Assembly (NCBI GenBank): GCA_016788665.1
Contig: JAEUSF010000002.1
Span: 73,387 to 137,386 of the forward strand
Reading direction: 5' to 3'
Length of the DNA stretch: 64,000 nt
From: Candidatus Doudnabacteria bacterium
GTDB taxonomy: Bacteria > Patescibacteriota > Doudnabacteria > UBA920
The notes under the pieces are model-generated. The model had not been told where the DNA came from. It ran no database searches and worked only from the letters and a program-made list of their open reading frames with translations. Below, one piece after another: positions 41,377-54,195 of the stretch (within the stretch, counting starts at the first letter, position 1; each line of letters starts with the position of its first letter). The position numbers and the translations under genes are program-made.

Positions 41377-41646
41377 ATGTCCTTTTTGTTCCTGATGGTC
41401 GTGTTTGCCATGGCCTCTCTTGCACATGCCGCCGGCGCCACTATGCGCCTGAGCAGTTTCTTGAGAAAGCAAAGCCTAAAAAAACAAACACTCCCAAAAG
41501 CAGTTACGGCCCTTATGGCCGCCGCGCAGCTTTCAGAGCTAGCAAGCCTTATAGAACACGCTTCGTTCGTGCATTTTGTTGGAGCAGCGATGGTTCTGGT
41601 AGTCTTGTTAGCTGTTAAGTCAGGAACCGAAGAACATGGGTTGTAG
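41377..41646 (+). CDS. GC-rich small (89 aa) Ala/Leu-rich protein with a signal peptide and a C-terminal hydrophobic anchor
   Basis: N-terminal MSFLFLMVVFAMASLAHAAGA and C-terminal FVGAAMVLVVLLAVKSGTEEHGL. Flanked by the consensus promoter and the 41711-41752 terminator. Confidence 0.4.
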   Translation: MSFLFLMVVFAMASLAHAAGATMRLSSFLRKQSLKKQTLPKAVTALMAAAQLSELASLIEHASFVHFVGAAMVLVVLLAVKSGTEEHGL

Positions 41647-42882: not shown

Positions 42883-43087
42883 AATATTTATTTATTTATT
42901 TATACAAACCATATTATAGCAAATAATATTGTTTTCATTCATACATTTGGCATTTTAAAATATTATTCTCATTTTGATAAGGAATTTATTTTCTACCAAC
43001 GGCTTTTTAACCTTTGGGTCAGAAAGAGCTATTAGACTATCTTTATTGATTAAGATAATTAAGTAAAAAAGTCAGGAGGTGAAAAAT

Positions 43088-43183
43088 ATGGCAAAAAATT
43101 CTAAACAAGGTAGAGGCTGGCACGGCGACTCAGAAGGACATGCACGCGCCGGCAGCCAATCCCATAAAAACGACAGACGCTAA
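43088..43183 (+). CDS. Very small basic hydrophilic protein (31 aa), possibly stress-related
   Basis: AGGAGGTGAAAAAT-ATG translation signal and no competing long ORF. MAKNSKQGRGWHGDSEGHARAGSQSHKNDRR. Confidence 0.4.
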   Translation: MAKNSKQGRGWHGDSEGHARAGSQSHKNDRR

Positions 43184-43247
43184 ATGGAATAAAATCCCAT
43201 CGTCTTAAAGTATAAATTAACAAAAACTTTGCTAGGAGGTGAAAAAT

Positions 43248-43373
43248 ATGTCCCACAACCACAACAATTCCAAAAGCAGAAACACTTCCTCGAACCAAGA
43301 CTCCTGGGAACGAACATCGAAGCAAAACGAACAAGCTTCGCGCAGTAACAGAGAAGCCAACAAAACTGAATAA
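43248..43373 (+). CDS. Very small hydrophilic protein (41 aa), a paralog-like tandem partner of 43088..43183
   Basis: Identical AGGAGGTGAAAAATATG initiation region. Followed by a terminator hairpin (ATCAGCAG...CTGCTGAT) at about 43388-43425. Confidence 0.4.
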   Translation: MSHNHNNSKSRNTSSNQDSWERTSKQNEQASRSNREANKTE

Positions 43374-43614
43374 ACAAAATTAACAAAATCAGCAGCCTTT
43401 GAAAGACTGCTGATTTTAGCATTTTTAGGCTAAAAACGGCCAAAATACCTGTATACACACCAGTCTATATATGCTATACTTATTAGGCAATAACTATTGT
43501 AACAAATCTAGTCGAATTTTAATCCCATAGCTTACTTGCGCTTTCCCGCACACTAAAATTTTTATATATATTTTATAGACGGTTAAGTTCTTATTATTTA
43601 TAATTCCAAAAATT

Positions 43615-43812
43615 ATGAACGGTGTTGTAAAAAAGAAAATGGACAAAGGCTTCGGCTTTATAACCATTGAAGGACAAAATCAAGATTTGTTCTTTCACAG
43701 CAACTCTTTGGTTGATATAACCTTCGAAGAGCTAAACGTAGGCGATGCAGTTTCCTTTGAAATAGAAGATTCCCCAAAAGGAAAAAATGCAGTCAGCGTA
43801 AGAAAAGTTTAA
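43615..43812 (+). CDS. cspA: Cold-shock protein, CspA family
   Basis: KGFGFI RNP1-like motif, 65 aa. The long AT-rich 5' UTR is typical of csp genes. Confidence 0.9.
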   Translation: MNGVVKKKMDKGFGFITIEGQNQDLFFHSNSLVDITFEELNVGDAVSFEIEDSPKGKNAVSVRKV

Positions 43813-43868
43813 TACTTTTTAAAAAACCTCCCTTACTTGCCTTTGGCAACAGGGAGGTTTTTTTATTC
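43779..43868 (+). repeat. Direct repeat copy A (csp 3' end plus terminator), about 90 bp
   Basis: Matches 45606-45695 with about 3 mismatches. Confidence 0.75.
43824..43868. terminator. Bidirectional intrinsic terminator, part of the duplicated segment
   Basis: CCTCCCT...AGGGAGG stem flanked by an A-run and a T-run. The identical copy lies at 45650-45695. Confidence 0.65.
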
Positions 43869-43891
43869 TATAATAAACTTTTGTAATTAGA

Positions 43892-45526
43892 TTAATTTTT
43901 ATTCTGCTCTGCCTCAAGTCGGATACGCAGCTCATCAAATTTTTTTTCTAATTCCGAAACCTGATCATCATGTTTGTTTCTTATAAACGTACTAGTTTCG
44001 TAATACTTTTCCTCTACTAGTTTCCTCTTTTCTTTGACTTCTTCCCAACCTACTTTTCCAGACCTATATACATCGGTTATATTATCCCGCGCCTTAATCT
44101 GATCATCCTTTGCTTTTTGGGATTCTTTTATATATTCCTGTCTTATTGCCCAAAATGCCTCATTTCGATTATTCCTCAAATTAAAACTTAGGTCTCCGCC
44201 ACCGAATCTAAAAAATAAACTTCCTTGCGAACCTAACTGAACCTGTCTTGTATTTTTTTCGAACCACTCATGCTTGCTTTCTAGGGAAGTCCCGGCAGGA
44301 AAATAGGCATCATCGCTTAAACGTTTTATTAACTGCTCAAATTCATAAGCCAACCCCTGCCTGTCCACAAAGGTTATTAGGTCATTCCCATTCACTAAAG
44401 CAAAATATATGTCTATATGCTCCTTACTTCCCACCTCATTGAATTTTACCAACTTTGACCAACTAAAATCCTGAATCCCTTCGTCGGTTAAAACAATTAC
44501 CGCTCGTTGCGAACCTGCATTTTCCGGAAGCAGTTTTTTTTCCAATACTTGATCCAACGAATTAAACAGTTGTTCATTTCCACCACTTAGCCTCAAATTC
44601 GACAGCGTCTCTTCTAGCTTTTCTGAAGGAACTTTCTTATAACTATCCAAGTCAGCACCTCTTTCAAAGGTAACAACATGGTTGGTGTCTGAACTAAAGT
44701 CTGAAGGCATTTGTTTAAACGCTTCACCAAACTTTTTACCCAAACGACCATAATCGTCCGACATAGATTCGCTCCGATCCGCCAAAATGGTAATTTTGTC
44801 ATAACTGGCCATAATTTCTACCAACTTAGCGTACTGAACTTCCACTTCGTTATCTCCCGGTAATTCAAAAGCCACCCGCGCATAACGCGCTTGGTCGTAT
44901 AATCCAGACAACTGCTCCCCAGAAAGTTTTTTTATTTCTTCTGGCTTATACCTTTCTTTCGTCGCCGGATTAATTAACTGAGTAATTGGTAAAAAACCTA
45001 CTCCCCAAGAACCTGCGGCTATCCGTTTGGTATAAGTCTTACGCCGAAACTGGCGCAGTGCGGTTGGATCTATCTGAGAGGAAAACTTATATGTCTCAAT
45101 AATATTCCGAAGCAACCCGTCCAAAGCTTTAAGTCTTTCGGTACTTAAACCTTCATTTCCCTTTTCCCATTTTTTTGTTGGCCTTTCGTCACTAGAAACC
45201 TCAATGCTTATACGACTTGAATTTAGCTTTGTAAACTTTTCCTTGTTATTATATTCTTCCAAAAATTTTTCAATTTTAGTTCTAATTTCTACCTCAGCCC
45301 TCCCGTTTAATTCAGCCGCGTCGACAGGGAAGGAGTTAGCAAAATCAAAATTTTCTAAAGCTTGAGTCTTTTTTGTCTCAGCCTTTTCACCCACCAAACC
45401 AGATTTAAAGTCCGAGCAACCCGGTATTAACAAGCTAGCCCCTAAGACCACCCACCTAGCAAGCCCAAAAGCCTTTTTTTTATACTCTTCGCCTCTAAAA
45501 CCCGATTCAAAACTTCTTTCCGACAT
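43892..45526 (-). CDS. Putative lipoprotein with a von Willebrand factor A (vWA) domain
   Basis: N-terminal signal with Cys (LLIPGCSD). MIDAS motif DxSxS (ADRSESMS) and VIVLTDEG. Native-type extended -10 TGGTAATAT upstream and no SD. Flanked by the about 90-bp direct repeats. Confidence 0.6.
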   Translation of the reverse strand: MSERSFESGFRGEEYKKKAFGLARWVVLGASLLIPGCSDFKSGLVGEKAETKKTQALENFDFANSFPVDAAELNGRAEVEIRTKIEKFLEEYNNKEKFTKLNSSRISIEVSSDERPTKKWEKGNEGLSTERLKALDGLLRNIIETYKFSSQIDPTALRQFRRKTYTKRIAAGSWGVGFLPITQLINPATKERYKPEEIKKLSGEQLSGLYDQARYARVAFELPGDNEVEVQYAKLVEIMASYDKITILADRSESMSDDYGRLGKKFGEAFKQMPSDFSSDTNHVVTFERGADLDSYKKVPSEKLEETLSNLRLSGGNEQLFNSLDQVLEKKLLPENAGSQRAVIVLTDEGIQDFSWSKLVKFNEVGSKEHIDIYFALVNGNDLITFVDRQGLAYEFEQLIKRLSDDAYFPAGTSLESKHEWFEKNTRQVQLGSQGSLFFRFGGGDLSFNLRNNRNEAFWAIRQEYIKESQKAKDDQIKARDNITDVYRSGKVGWEEVKEKRKLVEEKYYETSTFIRNKHDDQVSELEKKFDELRIRLEAEQNKN

Positions 45527-45605
45527 ATAATCAATACTATTAATGATAATTTATATTACCATAAATTAGCCGTTTTTAACTTAATGCCTAACCTTACAGG
45601 CCTTA

Positions 45606-45695
45606 CAAAAGGAAAAAACGCAGTCAACCTAAGAAAAGTTTAATACTTTTTAAAAAACCTCCCTTACTTGCCTTTGGCAACAGGGAGGTTTTTTT
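45606..45695 (+). repeat. Direct repeat copy B: duplicated csp 3' coding fragment plus terminator, about 90 bp
   Basis: Matches 43779-43868. It retains the last 8 csp codons (KGKNAVNLRKV versus KGKNAVSVRKV) and the terminator hairpin. Confidence 0.75.
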
Positions 45696-46098
45696 ATTAC
45701 TACGCAGCTTGGTTTTCCGCAGGGGCGGCAACTGGCGCTGTCTGGGTTTCCGGAGCCGGGCTAACTGGTTCCGTAGTGGTAGCATCTGTCTTTTGTTCGT
45801 CTGACATAACTGTATTCCTTTCGTATCCCGCTTCGGCAGACCCGAAGTTAACAGGACTACCTTATCTGAGCGAGACCATATTAGGGTAAATTGGCCCAGT
45901 AAGATATTTAGCCAGTGACTCATTATAACACTAACCAGCAAGAATAGATAGCTAGGAAACTACTGAAAACTGTCCTCCCCATTTACAAAAAATTTTCTCA
46001 TAAAAGTTCATTAATAGTTTTTGTAACTAGGATATTATATTGACACAATTAGTTAGGTACCTTACTATTATATATAAATCTAATTCATACGAACTCGT

Positions 46099-46539
46099 AT
46101 GCAAAAACTTGAATTAAGCCCATTAAGAAAACTCTTTCATACTGTCATACTTCTTTCCAAAAAGGATATGGTACGCAGATTCGCCGAAACGAATATTCAT
46201 CTTTCACAACTTCAGTTCTGGGTATTGGTAACCATTCGCGAACACCCGACTACCTTAAATGAAATAGCAAAAAAATTTGGTATAAAGCCGCCTTCCCTAA
46301 CACCGGTTGTAAGAATGCTAGAAAAAACCGGCTACCTGCAAAAAAAACCCGACGCCCATGACGGCAGAAAGTTCCAGCTAATAAATACAAAAAAAGGTGA
46401 ACAGGTCTTAAACAAATTACCCCTAAATACTTCAAAAGATGCGCTGAATGCCGCCTTCGAAAAACTTACGTCTACTAAACAAAGACAGCTTCTAAAACTA
46501 CTAGAGGAATTAATTTCAAATTTTGAATACCATGAATAA
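46099..46539 (+). CDS. MarR-family transcriptional regulator
   Basis: Winged-HTH segment LSQLQFWVLVTIREHPTTLNEIAKKFGIKPPSLTPVVRMLEKTGYL. Directly upstream of the ABC exporter pair. Confidence 0.85.
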   Translation: MQKLELSPLRKLFHTVILLSKKDMVRRFAETNIHLSQLQFWVLVTIREHPTTLNEIAKKFGIKPPSLTPVVRMLEKTGYLQKKPDAHDGRKFQLINTKKGEQVLNKLPLNTSKDALNAAFEKLTSTKQRQLLKLLEELISNFEYHE

Positions 46540-48265
46540 AGAACCAACTTTAAAACCTACCGAACCCAGTATATTTGGCGTAGTAAAACCCTACAACAAA
46601 CTCATAATCCCGCTTATACTGCTGGCAATTTTAAGCAATTCACTTGCCCTATGGCTCCCCCGTTTACTTTCCCATGGCATAGACGCTTACTTGCGTGGGG
46701 AAATTTTGAACAACATATTCTGGCAATTTGGCATCACTGCCTGCATAATTTTTATTCTAACCTTTTTACAAAGCATTGTTCAAACTTATGCTTCTGAGCG
46801 AGTAGCTAAAGACCTTAGACAAACATTGTCTGAAAAAATCTCCTCTCAAACTTTTGCCGAGGTTCAGACAATAACCCCGTCGAAACTGTTGACTAATTTA
46901 ACTTCAGACATGGATGCAGTAAAAAACTTTGTAGGTCAGGTAATAGTAAACCTGGTCTCCTCGCTTGTTCTTATATTTGGCGCAAGCATACTCCTTCTTT
47001 CCATTAATTGGAGGCTGGGCCTAGCTGTTTTGTCCATTATTCCAATAATTGGGATTGCTTTCTTTTTAATTATACGAAAAGTTAGCGGCTTTTTTTTAAA
47101 GGCCCGAGAAATAATAGACTGGTTAAACAAAGTAATAAACGAAAGCATATTGGGTGCCGCACTAATTCGCGTTATTAATTCCCAAACTACTGAGCACGCA
47201 AAATTCTCCGCAGCAAATAGCAAAGCGCGGGAAGTTGGAACCGCCATCCTTAAACTCTTTTCAGCCCTTATTCCCATTGTAACCTTTGTCTCCAACTTGG
47301 CCGTTCTAATTATTTTAGTCTTTGGTGGTCGCTTTGTTATAAACGGCTCAATGTCGCTGGGCGAGTTCGCCTCCTTTAACAGCTATCTGGTCATTTTAAT
47401 ATTCCCAATTATTTTAATTGGGGTAATGAGTAACTTTATTGCGCAAGCCCAAGCTTCTTACGGACGTGTTATGGCGGTTTTAAATTCCCCTGCCCCGCAG
47501 GAAGACGGCAAACTATCGGCCAAACTTTCCGGCCTGTTAGAAATAGAAAATTTAAATTTAAGTTTTGGCGAAAAAACTGCGCTTAAAAATATAAATTTAA
47601 AAATAGAACCGAAAAGCAAAGTAGCCATAATTGGCCCCACAGCTGCCGGCAAAACCCAGCTCTTAAATTTAATTATCGGACTAATTAAACCCTCCTCGGG
47701 CAAAGTTAAATTCGACGGAAATAGTTTAGAAGAATATCAAAGAGAAGCTTTGTACAAACAAGTAGGACTTGTTTTTCAAGATAGTATTATTTTTAACATT
47801 TCGCTTAGGGAAAATATTGCCTTTAACACAGAGGTTAATGCGCAAGATCTGGACAAAGCTATTAAAACCGCCGAACTTGGCGAGTTTATTCAAAGCTTAC
47901 CCAAAGGTCTGGATACTGTTGTTTCTGAACGAGGCACAAGCCTTTCCGGCGGGCAAAAACAACGTATAATGCTTGCACGAGCCCTTGCCATTAACCCTAA
48001 AATTCTCTTGCTCGACGACTTTACCGCCCGTGTAGACACCGCAACAGAAAAAAAGATTCTCAAAAATGTGTCTGTCAACTACCCAGAACTTACTTTGGTT
48101 TCTGTAACACAAAAAATTTCTTCGGTTGAAAGCTATGACCAGATTATAGTTCTCATGGAAGGCGAAATTATAGCTTCGGGCAGGCACGAGGAACTTATGC
48201 ACCTATCTCCGGAATATGTCCAAATTTACAATTCACAGCAAAGCACCAATGAACTACAATCTTAA
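46523..48265 (+). CDS. ABC exporter, fused permease-ATPase (type I exporter; half of a heterodimer)
   Basis: 6 TM segments plus an NBD with Walker A GPTAAGKTQL, signature LSGGQKQR and Walker B LLLDD. Confidence 0.85.
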   Translation: MNTMNKEPTLKPTEPSIFGVVKPYNKLIIPLILLAILSNSLALWLPRLLSHGIDAYLRGEILNNIFWQFGITACIIFILTFLQSIVQTYASERVAKDLRQTLSEKISSQTFAEVQTITPSKLLTNLTSDMDAVKNFVGQVIVNLVSSLVLIFGASILLLSINWRLGLAVLSIIPIIGIAFFLIIRKVSGFFLKAREIIDWLNKVINESILGAALIRVINSQTTEHAKFSAANSKAREVGTAILKLFSALIPIVTFVSNLAVLIILVFGGRFVINGSMSLGEFASFNSYLVILIFPIILIGVMSNFIAQAQASYGRVMAVLNSPAPQEDGKLSAKLSGLLEIENLNLSFGEKTALKNINLKIEPKSKVAIIGPTAAGKTQLLNLIIGLIKPSSGKVKFDGNSLEEYQREALYKQVGLVFQDSIIFNISLRENIAFNTEVNAQDLDKAIKTAELGEFIQSLPKGLDTVVSERGTSLSGGQKQRIMLARALAINPKILLLDDFTARVDTATEKKILKNVSVNYPELTLVSVTQKISSVESYDQIIVLMEGEIIASGRHEELMHLSPEYVQIYNSQQSTNELQS

Positions 48266-50009
48266 CAAACCAGAAGCCGGAAAGAAAACTTCGACCTGGC
48301 AAGCGGGCAAAAAACTGTGGCCATTGCTCGTAGAGGAAAAAAATATTATATTTGCAGCGGTTTTAGCTGTGGCTATAAATTCATTCCTAAACCTTCTTGC
48401 ACCATGGCTTATTGCCCATGTTGTGGATGCCTATATTATTCGTAAGAATTTTGAAGGCGTGCTTACTTTCTCCGGCATAATTCTGGTTATGTATCTGTTT
48501 GGGCTTATTACGAGCTATATGCAGACCAGGCTAATGGGCGGTGTGGGACAAAGAGTGCTCTACCGTTTGCGCAACCAAGTTTTTAACAAACTCCAAGAGC
48601 TGCCTGTTGACTTCTTTAACCAAAATAAAGCCGGGGACTTAATTTCACGCATTAACAACGACACGGACAAAATTAACCTGTTTTTCTCACAGTCTGTTGT
48701 CCAATTCATGAGCAGTATTTTTCTTATGCTCGGCGCGGCCGTATTCCTACTTAGCATAAACCTTAAGCTTGGAGCGGCTACTCTTGCTCCCGCAGTACTA
48801 CTCTTAATAGTTACCAGAGCACTTTCAGCCTGGGTAAAAAACAAAAATCTAGCCAGCTCCCAGTCTTTGGGCGGCTTAAGTTCGGAAATTCAAGAGAGTC
48901 TAAATAACTTTAAAGTCATAATAGCTTTTAACCGCCGCGACTATTTTAAAAAGCGCTTCCAGGAGGTAAACAACATAAACTACGAAGCTGCAATTGCAGC
49001 CGGCGTCGCAAACAACACTTTTACCCCCATATATGGACTCGCCTCTAACTTGGGACAGCTTATTGTGCTGGTCTATGGTATTATGCTTATTTCCTCCGGA
49101 CAATTTACTGTTGGACTACTTATTAGTTTTGTGGCTTACGCTAGTAATTTCTACAATCCTTTAAGGCAGCTGGCGGCACTTTGGGCAAATTTCCAGGCCG
49201 CGCTTGCCAGCTGGGACCGCGTACATGAAATATTAGCAATGGAAAGTAATTTGCCAAAAATCACCCAAGCCTCAAACATCAAAGCAACCAATGCGCTTCT
49301 GGAATTTAAACATGTTAGCTTTGGCTACACCGAAGGCAAAGAAGTTTTGCACAATATAAATTTACTTCTTGAAAAAGGTAAAACATACGCACTTGTAGGA
49401 CCCACCGGTGGGGGTAAAACCACCACCGCTTCCTTAATGGCAAGACTATATGACCCAACCTCAGGCGAAGTATTTTTAGACGGAAAAGATATTCGTTCAT
49501 ATTTGCCTGCCGAACGTACAAAAAAAGTCGGTTTTATTTTGCAGGAGCCTATTCTCTTTACAGGTACGGTCAAAGAAAATATTTTATACGGCAACGAACA
49601 GTACTCTTCCCTTAGCGAAGAAGAGTTAACAAATATTATTCATAAAGCCGGCTTGGAAAAAATACTGGAAAGATTCGACAAAGGACTTAAAACTCAACTT
49701 ACTGCCAGCGGTGATGCGGTTAGCCTTGGACAAAAACAGCTTATTGCCTTTATGCGTGCCGTGCTTCGTAATCCTGACATACTTATACTCGACGAGGCCA
49801 CTGCTAACATAGACACCGTAACCGAACAACTCCTGGAAGAGATTTTAAAAAACCTTCCCGCCCATACAACTAAAGTTATAATTGCACACAGGCTCAATAC
49901 CATACAAAACGCAGATGATATTTTCTTCGTTAACTCCGGCTCGGTAACCGAAGCCGGCTCCATGGATCACGCCATGGAAATGCTGCTTCACAACGAAAGA
50001 AATAGTTAA
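48216..50009 (+). CDS. ABC exporter, fused permease-ATPase (second half of the heterodimer)
   Basis: 6 TM segments plus an NBD with GPTGGGKTT, SLGQKQL and ILILDEAT. Overlaps the upstream gene. Confidence 0.85.
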   Translation: MSKFTIHSKAPMNYNLNKPEAGKKTSTWQAGKKLWPLLVEEKNIIFAAVLAVAINSFLNLLAPWLIAHVVDAYIIRKNFEGVLTFSGIILVMYLFGLITSYMQTRLMGGVGQRVLYRLRNQVFNKLQELPVDFFNQNKAGDLISRINNDTDKINLFFSQSVVQFMSSIFLMLGAAVFLLSINLKLGAATLAPAVLLLIVTRALSAWVKNKNLASSQSLGGLSSEIQESLNNFKVIIAFNRRDYFKKRFQEVNNINYEAAIAAGVANNTFTPIYGLASNLGQLIVLVYGIMLISSGQFTVGLLISFVAYASNFYNPLRQLAALWANFQAALASWDRVHEILAMESNLPKITQASNIKATNALLEFKHVSFGYTEGKEVLHNINLLLEKGKTYALVGPTGGGKTTTASLMARLYDPTSGEVFLDGKDIRSYLPAERTKKVGFILQEPILFTGTVKENILYGNEQYSSLSEEELTNIIHKAGLEKILERFDKGLKTQLTASGDAVSLGQKQLIAFMRAVLRNPDILILDEATANIDTVTEQLLEEILKNLPAHTTKVIIAHRLNTIQNADDIFFVNSGSVTEAGSMDHAMEMLLHNERNS

Positions 50010-52972: not shown

Positions 52973-53899
52973 TTGATAAAACAGTCAGTTAAGTATAGAA
53001 TTATATCCTGTAAGTTTTCAATCCCAGAGGGAGGACCGATGAACTTTTCCACATACCTTGAGGTACTGTTGTCCGCCAAAGAAGCGGCGGCAAAAATCCC
53101 CTTGGGGGTCTACGACCCCATTGTCTGGCCTGAGCTAAGACCAGACGCGCCGACAGCAATGCTGTTGTCCGCGCATCCAGACGACGAATGGCTGTCCTTT
53201 ATGCCGCTGGGTTTGCGGCTACGGCGAGAAGGCTACAACGTTGTTGTGGTCGCTGTTACCTTAGGGCGGCCCGAACAGCACGCGCGACGCCTTAGCGAAC
53301 TAACAGCTGCCTGCCGCTACGGCGGCATGGAACTGTGCGTTCCGGGACCCGAAGGCAAAGGCCTACGGGACCAAATCAGAAACGAAAATGGGGAAACATT
53401 TTCCGGCGCTGTAGAAGAGGTGCTGAAACTAACCAACCGCTACATGCCCAAAGTGTTCATAACACACCACGCGGAAGACGGACACCGGGACCACAAAAGC
53501 TGCAATCGTTTGGCCAAAATTGCGACTGCCTGCAGCAAACAGCACACATTCCTCGTCGAAACGGAATACTGGCAAGACATTGGCGAACCCAACTGCCAAC
53601 TCGAAGTAGCATACCTAGACGTAGTCCGCGTTATGGAGGGTGTCAGTTTCCACAAGGGGGAACTGGAAAGGAACCCTTACCACTTAACCTACCCTCTACT
53701 CGGTATGCTGAATGCCCAGTACGTAGAACGCGTTGTGGGGTTTGGCAACCCCGCGGCGAAATTTCAGTTCTCGGTAATACTGAAGCTGACGGTGTTTAAA
53801 ATGGGCCGCCAGTACGACTACAAACACCCTAGCCAACTCAGCACGGACCAGTCAGTGTCCATGCTCTTTCCGGAAAAACCAACCACAACGTCAGTTTAA
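52973..53899 (+). CDS. GC-rich PIG-L/LmbE-family N-acetylglucosaminyl deacetylase (probable start 53039 after GAGGGAGG RBS)
   Basis: LLSAHPDDE motif and DGHRDH (HxDH) metal-binding motif. Promoter TTGATA-17-TAGAAT at 52973-53001. About 55% GC. Confidence 0.7.
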   Translation: MIKQSVKYRIISCKFSIPEGGPMNFSTYLEVLLSAKEAAAKIPLGVYDPIVWPELRPDAPTAMLLSAHPDDEWLSFMPLGLRLRREGYNVVVVAVTLGRPEQHARRLSELTAACRYGGMELCVPGPEGKGLRDQIRNENGETFSGAVEEVLKLTNRYMPKVFITHHAEDGHRDHKSCNRLAKIATACSKQHTFLVETEYWQDIGEPNCQLEVAYLDVVRVMEGVSFHKGELERNPYHLTYPLLGMLNAQYVERVVGFGNPAAKFQFSVILKLTVFKMGRQYDYKHPSQLSTDQSVSMLFPEKPTTTSV

Positions 53900-54195
53900 A
53901 CAACTGCCGTTTTTTTATTAAACGAAGATTGAGATACATGAAGACTGACTCGCGATTTAATCCAATCTTTGTGTGTTCTTGTCTGTGGTCGCTCAGCTGT
54001 TAGCAAGCACCTCTCTTTTAGTTCAATGTATAAAGTTTCAATATGCCTCCAATGCTTTTGCTGTTCTAAATCAAAAAGCTTAGAATCTTCATCCTTAAAA
54101 ATCAAACTAAAAACACCATTCCGGGTGTGTCCCTCGACTCGGCTGCACTCGCTCGGGACAAAATAAAATACCCCATACATTGGGGTATTTTATTT

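Follow-up and report, generated by a model that had tools for sequence, protein, structure and literature searches.

A duplicated cold-shock gene tail and terminator brackets a vWA lipoprotein gene in a Candidatus Doudnabacteria genome

Results

Genes and signals at the locus

We analysed a 64-kb stretch of Candidatus Doudnabacteria DNA (64,000 nt, referred to as the window), within which a cold-shock protein gene (csp), a vWA lipoprotein gene (V) and a small open reading frame (S) lie next to each other, with two copies, A and B, of a direct repeat (R) bracketing V. The coordinates are reported in Table 1. Two relatives, L081 and L082, carry the same neighbourhood and are used for comparison throughout.

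Table 1. Features of the csp, V and S neighbourhood (positions in the window).
Feature	Coordinates	Strand	Description
csp promoter and 5' leader	43449..43614	+	conserved with L081 and L082
csp, intact 65-aa cold-shock protein gene	43615..43812	+	Pfam CSD
Repeat copy A	43775..43867	+	csp codons 54 (part) to 65, stop, 3' spacer, terminator; completes intact csp
Terminator hairpin A	43821..43863	both	predicted; common to the convergent csp and vWA genes; fold energy, U-run 3' of the stem on each strand
V, 544-aa vWA lipoprotein	43892..45526	-	signal peptide and lipobox, OmpA-C-like domain, vWA with MIDAS DxSxS, C-terminal coiled coil (predicted)
V upstream region, putative extended -10 promoter TGGTAATAT	45527..45605 (promoter 45561-45553)	-	read from the sequence
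Repeat copy B	45606..45698	+	displaced csp tail KGKNAVNLRKV and stop, then terminator; csp 5' part absent
Terminator hairpin B	45652..45694	both	predicted; same sequence as A; minus-strand end of the small-ORF unit, between S and the vWA gene
S, 35-aa acidic Pro/Ala/Thr-rich small ORF	45700..45807	-	candidate gene; ORF and AAAGGA; unannotated in the deposited record
S leader, putative extended -10 promoter TGTTATAAT	45808..45930 (promoter 45930-45922)	-	read from the sequence

The csp protein is 100% identical to MBL8029932.1 and shares 89% and 88% identity with its orthologues in L081 and L082, respectively. Residues 1–64 match the Pfam CSD family (PF00313, 1.5e-17), a full-length cold-shock domain that identifies the product as a predicted CspA-family cold-shock protein. 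The region upstream of csp aligns by blastn with L081 (508–909) and L082 (361–739) at ∼75% identity, starting from 43449/43467. Promoter-like sites are found here at 43452–43480 and 43576–43604, and the leader matches no Rfam family.

The product of V is identical to MBL8029933.1, and its gene has the GC content of the genome. The family alignment and the structural model place invariant residues L33, G36 and Cys37 after a hydrophobic helix (residues 12–32), marking V as a predicted bacterial lipoprotein with a lipobox. The match of V itself to Pfam VWA_2 (3.4e-4, 21.7 bits) falls under the cut-off of 27; across the family, VWA_2 is matched by seven of 15 members and VWA by six of 15, with best E-values of 3e-5 and 7e-6. 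The MIDAS residues of the DxSxS motif (D250, S252 and S254) are invariant in alignments of both 12 and 15 sequences. An AlphaFold model of V (pLDDT 85.6) was matched by Foldseek with a probability of 1.00 to the vWA domains of CMG2/ANTXR2, LapA, TRAP and Rpn10, and the matches also include the PorE C-terminal domain. As modelled, V carries a vWA domain with a MIDAS motif and a Rossmann-like vWA fold, in keeping with the vWA lipoprotein of 544 residues described by the first-pass annotation.

Beyond copy B on the minus strand lies S, which had been reported as a GC-rich, acidic ORF with a ribosome-binding site that ends at copy B. That description stands, with the length corrected from 34 to 35 residues, the position from 45702–45806 to that in Table 1, and the ribosome-binding site from AAGGA to AAAGGA, 8 nt ahead of the ATG. 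The S region has a GC content of 0.53, against 0.40 for the window. L082 carries a homologous 32-aa ORF adjoining the csp terminator, in which the ATG, the AAAGGA and the sequence MSDExKTD are kept and the length differs by an in-frame 12-nt indel. A hand count over 26 codons gave differences of 7:6:10 at codon positions 1:2:3. In both genomes the stop codon sits within 1–3 nt of the terminator T-tract, and a counterpart of the putative S promoter, TGTTATACT, occurs in the matching place in L082. As the ORF, start and ribosome-binding site are kept and the indel is a multiple of three, we consider S a conserved, as yet unproven, candidate small coding gene.

The deposited record numbers csp, vWA and MarR consecutively (MBL8029932–34 range), which leaves S unannotated; no pipeline calls it a gene, it is absent from the protein collection, and an exhaustive search of 1.84 billion representatives returned 0 homologues. 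Other roles for the region were considered and rejected. For a structured RNA, the only Rfam hit at the gathering or E≤1 threshold was PyrR on the terminator (E=0.3), a spurious one. For a tmRNA, ARAGORN found none, and the folding of the S leader was not significant in the window (z −1.0) or in L082 (z +0.7). S as an attenuating leader peptide of the vWA gene was rejected too, as in L082 the S-terminator unit faces csp rather than vWA.

Hairpins A and B have minimum free energies of −23.8 kcal/mol on the plus strand and −24.3 kcal/mol on the minus strand, with z-scores of −5.6 to −6.6 and no equally stable sequence among 200 shuffles for either copy. A U-tract lies directly 3' of the stem on each strand (GGGAGGTTTTTTTATT on the plus strand, GGGAGGTTTTTTAAAAAG on the minus strand), in A-tract/U-tract symmetry. 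Hairpin A begins 14 nt after the csp stop, and the vWA gene stop is 24 nt past copy A; for S, the stop codon and the end of copy B are 1 nt apart. We predict that the hairpin is a bidirectional intrinsic (Rho-independent) terminator, and both copies presumably work in vivo. Such terminators between convergent genes are of an established kind, and the one in R resembles them in its GC-rich hairpin between stops, its A-tract and T-tract flanks and its U-run on either strand. It differs from the usual case in that it was copied along with a gene tail; the terminator itself is ordinary.

The direct repeat

A repeat search of the window gave a direct repeat of 93 nt at 97% identity with a spacing of 1831 nt (blastn E=5.6e-41 between copies), bearing out the direct repeat of about 90 bp with about three mismatches noted earlier. 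A comparison of the region with itself, which the first-pass annotation had proposed as a check, recovered two copies with sharp edges at both ends and no blastn similarity beyond them. There are only these two copies in the window, and the 35-nt hairpin core likewise occurs exactly twice, with 0 occurrences expected from 100 shuffles.

R contains the last 11 codons of csp and the stop, the 3' spacer, and a strong hairpin with a U-tract on each strand, beginning at the second base of csp codon 54. The earlier description of R as the csp 3' end plus terminator was thus right, while its extent of eight codons with ends at 43868 and 45695 gives way to 11 full codons plus stop and the limits in Table 1. 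Copy B resembles Csp over residues 55–65 only, as expected of the truncated csp remnant that had been proposed, and there is no second csp gene elsewhere in the window.

The copies differ at repeat positions 14, 22 and 24, all within the csp part, and are identical over the final 69 nt. Finding all three mismatches in the first 24 nt has a probability of P=0.016 under uniform placement, and this clustering fits with both terminators being under constraint.

Comparison with relatives

The csp, V and S neighbourhood was found in three genomes only (the window, L081 and L082), and is common to a small clade of Candidatus Doudnabacteria. The order in the window is csp, terminator, V, csp tail with terminator, S. 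In L081 it is csp, terminator, V, with no S and no second copy of R; here the V orthologue has 58% amino-acid identity and is convergent to csp. In L082 it is csp, terminator, S, V. Given the gene orders of L082 and L081, the R-S and R-V adjacencies both exist outside the window, and the genomes differ in whether they have the small-ORF unit and in where it stands with respect to V. This varied architecture speaks against an ancient stable duplication shared by all relatives, which the first-pass annotation had named as the competing outcome of such a comparison. With three genomes and no outgroup carrying the neighbourhood, the ancestral order cannot be polarised.

Wider searches did not extend this set. 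Neither a vWA gene nor S lies beside csp in any of 80 more distant csp loci from a metagenome scan (csp identity ≤78%), nor in the P0020 locus. Searching with the vWA orthologue of L081 for nearer members of the clade gave nothing new, and the ABC transporter used as a synteny anchor in species-representative genomes gave 80 loci, of which 0 were syntenic and many were from Bacteroidota. Exact-protein look-ups of the window vWA protein, csp and S found none indexed.

The csp-V block lies in a different genomic context in L081 and L082 than in the window, and of a HEPN_AbiU2 gene, intact in L081, the window has just a 94-aa stump. L082 has a decayed second csp tail and terminator beside V, scoring 30 against 15.1 ± 2.4 for shuffles (p=0.0005; p=0.0007–0.003 against real sequence). 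The neighbourhood is rearrangement-prone.

V as a possible newly arrived gene

The layout R-V-R resembles attL-island-attR, and it is conceivable that a vWA cassette of 1.7 kb, new to the site and possibly mobile, entered a csp-R-S locus and carried or generated the copy of the csp 3' end, like a target-restoring island. Copy B, beside S, keeps the Asn codon of L081 and L082, as expected of a displaced original end, and the csp-R-S adjacency is found in L082. V, however, is native to the locus, being beside csp in L081 and one unit off in L082; its GC content is typical of the genome, and more distant vWA homologues show neither flanking repeats nor a csp beside them. The association is also missing from three vWA outgroup loci. 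The sole gene between the repeats is V, and ORF and profile searches between and next to them detected no recombinase or transposase; the neighbours of the bracketed segment are csp, S, MarR and an ABC transporter.

An integrase-mediated island, for which attL and attR direct repeats at the 3' ends of tRNA, tmRNA or protein genes likewise bracket a segment and leave the target intact, was rejected: no tyrosine or serine recombinase gene lies in or beside the segment, what is bracketed is a single gene native in relatives, and the repeat spans a complete terminator. A transposon or insertion sequence was rejected as well, as there is no transposase ORF, no inverted repeats were found at the segment ends, and a duplication of 93 nt is far outside the 2–14 bp range of transposases. 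We regard the insertion of a new cassette as unlikely. Of the earlier proposals, duplication by recombination that reused the csp terminator is retained, whereas the vWA segment as an inserted novelty and a site-specific mechanism are not.

Relationship of the two repeat copies

Polarised against L081 and L082, one change (Asn to Ser) is derived in copy A and two are derived in copy B. The copies share derived bases against both relatives, including an Arg codon, the 3' spacer, the hairpin interior and the form of the T-tract, and differ from each other at 3/93 sites, compared with 22/66 csp third positions between the window and L081. This comparison shows A and B as sister copies, and the common derived bases place the duplication, or a later homogenisation, in the window lineage. 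Gene conversion of an older duplication could also give rise to their near-identity.

csp genes are often multi-copy, and copy B could be the rest of a second full csp paralogue (csp2-terminator-S), the 5' part of which was deleted as the vWA upstream region joined codon 54; its tail does translate to a plausible Csp C-terminus. The shared derived positions and the 69 identical nt would nevertheless require the paralogue to be very young or homogenised, and L081 and L082 have a single csp at the locus, as does the window. This origin seems quite unlikely to us.

A stretch of perfect identity of 69 nt exceeds many assembly k-mer sizes, and with both csp-R-S and csp-R-V alleles in relatives, the same assembly graph, in which two tails enter one exact repeat that has two exits, would fit a csp-R-S chromosome accompanied by a 1.83-kb circle of R, V and the V upstream region that is separate or excised, or a mixture of strains. 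Against this, the junction at 45605/45606 shares only ∼7 nt with csp and cannot be created by k-mer overlap, and the three private differences in copy B imply a second physical copy under either topology. A circle of 1.8 kb that lacks a replication gene is implausible as a replicon, and the contig is 151 kb. We hold an assembly ambiguity to be highly improbable.

Discussion

The repeat is probably the scar of a local change of gene order in the csp, V and S neighbourhood, an ordinary rearrangement that calls for no new kind of element. V and S would each be a self-contained unit with its own promoter, gene and terminator, and in the window lineage they would have ended up in the reverse order to L082. 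The event would have duplicated R, so that csp keeps an intact 3' end and terminator (copy A, also serving V) and S keeps the terminator that it abuts in L082 (copy B), with a useless csp tail attached. We infer the direction of change and the route of recombination from these arrangements.

The likeliest route is a 3'-end displacement, with one homologous anchor and one illegitimate join. Incoming DNA comprising csp, R, V and the V upstream region, derived from a sister chromosome or from another, closely related, cell, would pair with the recipient csp region, and its far end would join illegitimately inside the recipient csp at codon 54, pushing the original csp tail, terminator and S downstream. 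The distal end of the V upstream region is the new junction with copy B; this region gave no blastn alignment to the sequence upstream of the L081 vWA gene.

Orphan 3' fragments left by the displacement of 3' ends are described for T6SS, Rhs and CDI effector-immunity loci, and homology-facilitated illegitimate recombination is given as the cause (Kirchberger et al. 2017, PMC5361080, citing Jackson 2009, Poole 2011 and de Vries & Wackernagel 2002). As in those systems, the conserved 5' part of the gene stays in place, a new 3' end and downstream gene adjoin it, the old 3' end and its gene are pushed back, and a dedicated recombinase is unnecessary. Here, in contrast, the displaced piece comprises only 38 coding nt and a terminator, the 3' ends are near-identical rather than polymorphic, a housekeeping cold-shock gene takes the place of a toxin gene, neither downstream gene is an immunity gene, and the route is deduced. 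As a rule, this route removes DNA from the recipient, and a duplication is not its usual result.

The same outcome could be reached by duplication of the block followed by loss of the redundant copies. Swapped gene orders are classically explained by tandem duplication and random loss, a process familiar above all from mitochondrial genomes; as in the present locus, neighbouring units trade places, and a duplicated piece is left behind as the mark of the event. It would need at least three events here, and remnants of the lost copies were not found. The 9-mer CCTCCCCAT at ∼45975, upstream of S, was considered as what might be left of a terminator or of the vWA 3' end, and was rejected as not significant (p=0.28 and p=0.09). 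No vestige of V or of another terminator was detected in this part of the window, so that a duplication and the losses after it are without any trace. The data fit either route, and we consider displacement the most likely.

The identical 69-nt stretch has the length needed for recombination of the RecA type; the product would be csp-R-S, with V lost. A further-reaching reading, which we hold to be very doubtful, is that the csp tail and terminator act as a recurrent, integrase-free recombination site, at which single-gene cassettes such as V and S are added, swapped and excised in reduced CPR genomes, so that V could be lost and regained at the population level. The observations cited for it are the three cassette orders in three relatives, the decayed second unit in L082, and the bracketing of V by 69 nt of perfect identity. 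If true, it would provide a crude on/off switch for a surface adhesin, the vWA surface lipoprotein.

For the local change of gene order that we favour, the by-products would be a vWA surface lipoprotein that could be deleted by direct-repeat recombination and a conserved, unannotated small transcription unit, S, neither of which alters the current understanding of any system. The locus is a minor record of evolution and above all a cautionary case, in that a duplicated gene tail and terminator mimics the footprint of a mobile insertion, whereas relatives reveal a reshuffling of resident genes. It would also show that the small genes of a streamlined CPR genome each keep a complete promoter-to-terminator unit through rearrangement.

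The csp 3′ end and its terminator are duplicated

A repeat search of the window, whose GC content is 40%, found a single direct repeat of 93 nt (R; copies A and B in the table), with 97% identity between copies 1831 nt apart and a blastn E of 5.6e-41. This bears out the repeat proposed in the first-pass annotation, with slightly corrected coordinates; blastn found no similarity outside either repeat boundary. R starts at the second base of codon 54 of csp and therefore comprises 11 codons, the stop codon, a 14-nt spacer and the terminator. Mismatches occur at three repeat positions, 14, 22 and 24, and the final 69 nt are identical. Copy B matches Csp residues 55–65 only, consistent with its earlier description as a csp remnant, and no further csp was found in the window beside the intact gene.

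Features of the csp locus and its surroundings, in window coordinates
Feature	Position	Strand	Description
GC-rich island	41377-41646	+	GC 0.53; fold z -3.75
Small hydrophilic ORF	43079-43183	+	34 aa
Small hydrophilic ORF	43239-43373	+	44 aa
csp upstream stretch	43449-43614	+	~165 nt
csp	43615-43812	+	Complete cold-shock domain protein, Pfam 1.5e-17
Copy A of R	43775-43867		
vWA lipoprotein ORF (V)	43895-45526	-	544 aa
19-aa ORF	45584-45643	+	MPNLTGLTKGKNAVNLRKV
Copy B of R	45606-45698		
Small ORF (S)	45700-45807	-	35 aa; AAAGGA upstream; stop 1 nt from copy B
Paired ABC exporter genes	46523-50009	+	
HEPN_AbiU2-type stump	53896-54180	-	94 aa, N-terminal

The hairpin core within R occurs exactly twice in the 64 kb, against an expectation of 0 in shuffles. 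Its computed folding energy is -23.8 kcal/mol for the plus strand and -24.3 for the minus (z about -6), and a U-run lies 3′ of the stem on either strand in copies A and B alike; the hairpin is a predicted bidirectional intrinsic terminator (T), overlooked by a simple pattern scan because of its long loop region. The 19-aa ORF, whose ATG is in frame with the copy B csp tail, lacks any evident ribosome-binding site and probably arose by chance.

The bracketed gene and the small ORF beyond copy B

The csp, vWA and MarR proteins of the window have identical counterparts (MBL8029932.1, MBL8029933.1 and MBL8029934.1) on a 151-kb contig of a Candidatus Doudnabacteria MAG. V had been described as a vWA lipoprotein, and this holds: an L-x-G-C lipobox and DxSxS are both invariant in its family, and its AlphaFold model (pLDDT 85.6, pTM 0.78) resembles the solved vWA domains of CMG2/ANTXR2, LapA and TRAP, with the match to Pfam VWA_2 falling below threshold. 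In the model, the N-terminal part resembles the OmpA-C-like C-terminal domain of PorE, which suggests that V joins a cell-wall-anchoring module to the vWA domain and to a coiled coil at the C terminus. A long helical pair makes up the final 100 residues. Residues 105–135 hold a block, SSDERPT..W..GN..LS..R, that is invariant across the family.

S is called by no pipeline, and an exhaustive search of 1.84 billion representatives detected no database homologues. Its region is GC-rich because of the Pro/Ala/Thr/Glu content of S. A homologous unit is present in L082, one of the two relatives described below, with the ATG, AAAGGA ribosome-binding site, reading frame and N-terminal MSDExKTD all conserved, as is the extended -10 (TGTTATAAT against TGTTATACT). 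A 12-nt in-frame indel and substitutions in a 7:6:10 ratio by codon position (hand count) separate the two units, and in both the stop abuts the terminator T-tract. The S leader gave no significant fold and no Rfam match. S is a conserved promoter-to-terminator unit, putatively coding.

Gene order differs among relatives

No close relative of the source genome is present in the collections, where the two best csp matches, from L081 and L082, have 89% and 88% identity and the remainder 80% or lower. In L081 (GCA_964523855.1), csp and the terminator are followed by a convergent 540-aa vWA orthologue (58% amino acid identity), with neither S nor a second repeat copy. In L082, a Logan contig whose csp is about 98% identical to that of L081, the ~270-nt S unit separates the terminator from the vWA stop. 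Three genomes therefore display three orders: csp-T-V (L081), csp-T-S-V (L082) and csp-T-V-(csp tail + T)-S (window). The comparison with relatives proposed in the first-pass annotation thus shows a layout that is not common to all, and a vWA gene that is resident rather than a newcomer. Beyond these genomes, 80 csp loci of greater divergence, another csp locus and three vWA outgroup loci lacked both the csp/vWA/S association and flanking repeats.

The context around the csp-V block in L081 and L082 is unlike that of the window, and a HEPN_AbiU2-type gene intact in L081 (4714–6204, 496 aa) is reduced in the window to an N-terminal stump, which together indicate that the region has been rearranged repeatedly. 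The L081 gene adjoins a tRNA-Glu also present in the window, where 267-aa and 308-aa genes stand in its place. Between L081:850–910 and L082:690–1012, the flanking genes are 97–98% identical and the difference is the presence or absence of the S unit, which in L082 has TTTTTATTTT at either end. Divergence between these two is locally higher in the hairpin interior (8/28 nt) and the last vWA codons, hinting that a more distant donor supplied a replacement allele.

Other features were observed nearby. The csp upstream stretch, possibly a long cold-shock 5′ leader, has roughly 75% identity with L081 and L082 and no Rfam match. The tandem 34- and 44-aa ORFs have an identical 17-nt ribosome-binding site and start (AGGAGGTGAAAAATATG), both begin MKNM and neither has a Pfam match; the former resembles stress-induced KGG-type peptides. 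The second GC-rich island has no Rfam match; its best reading is an Ala-rich ORF of 89 aa, preceded by an AAGGAGG site and encoding a signal peptide and, at the C terminus, a hydrophobic helix. Homologues of the ABC exporter genes in Pedobacter, Mucilaginibacter and other Bacteroidota are 57–61% identical to them, roughly the level seen for most CPR homologues, which suggests transfer between phyla.

Copies A and B are sisters

Polarised against L081 and L082, copy A carries a single derived change, AAC to AGC, which replaces Asn with Ser; copy B carries two, AAT to AAC, which is synonymous, and GTA to CTA. Derived states common to both copies are an AGA codon, the TAATAC spacer, the entire interior of the hairpin and the form of the T-tract; by sequence, each copy is the closest relative of the other. 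Between them 3/93 sites differ, compared with 22/66 csp third positions between the window and L081, which places the duplication, or else a later gene conversion that homogenised the copies, in the window lineage. All three differences fall inside the first 24 nt (P=0.016), which fits constraint on both terminators while the copy B csp tail drifts.

L082 contains a decayed second csp tail and terminator at 943–1010, with the S promoter on one side and the vWA stop on the other (p=0.0005 against shuffles and 0.0007–0.003 against real sequence, from one 80-column alignment). It is suggestive of more than one duplication in the clade, the one in L082 being perhaps older and independent. The GGGAGG arm is missing from this copy, and TTGAGC sits at the expected place of the S -35.

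A probable rearrangement reusing the csp terminator

The first-pass annotation proposed a duplicative insertion or recombination reusing the csp terminator, an interpretation that is partly right. No recombinase or transposase is encoded between or beside the repeats, the bracketed segment has no terminal inverted repeats, and V has genome-typical GC content and is resident in relatives; a foreign cassette at a site-specific target, with the 1.7-kb vWA segment as the novelty, is therefore unsupported.

The layout, csp 5′ part-R-V-upstream followed by csp tail-R-S, is the product expected from 3′-end displacement. An incoming csp-R-V segment would anchor in csp by homology, its far end would join illegitimately at csp codon 54, and the original csp tail, terminator and S would be shifted downstream. 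T6SS effector-immunity arrays and Rhs loci have an outcome like the displaced csp 3′ end, ascribed to homology-facilitated illegitimate recombination (PMC5361080). An identical layout would result if the block were duplicated and redundant copies then lost; this needs more events, and a remnant of the lost copies was not detected. The junction of the vWA upstream region with the csp tail has only about 7 nt in common with csp and copy B carries private substitutions, so the second physical copy is real, whatever the assembler made of the 69-nt exact repeat. An alternative topology, csp-R-S plus a 1.83-kb R-V circle as excision product, would fit the same assembly graph.

As read from these comparisons, the window locus is a rearrangement scar reusing a predicted bidirectional terminator, and so adds one more case to a class of event already known. 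The data allow, but do not support, repeated shuffling of cassettes at the csp terminator without an integrase; if that were true, the vWA lipoprotein would be excisable.
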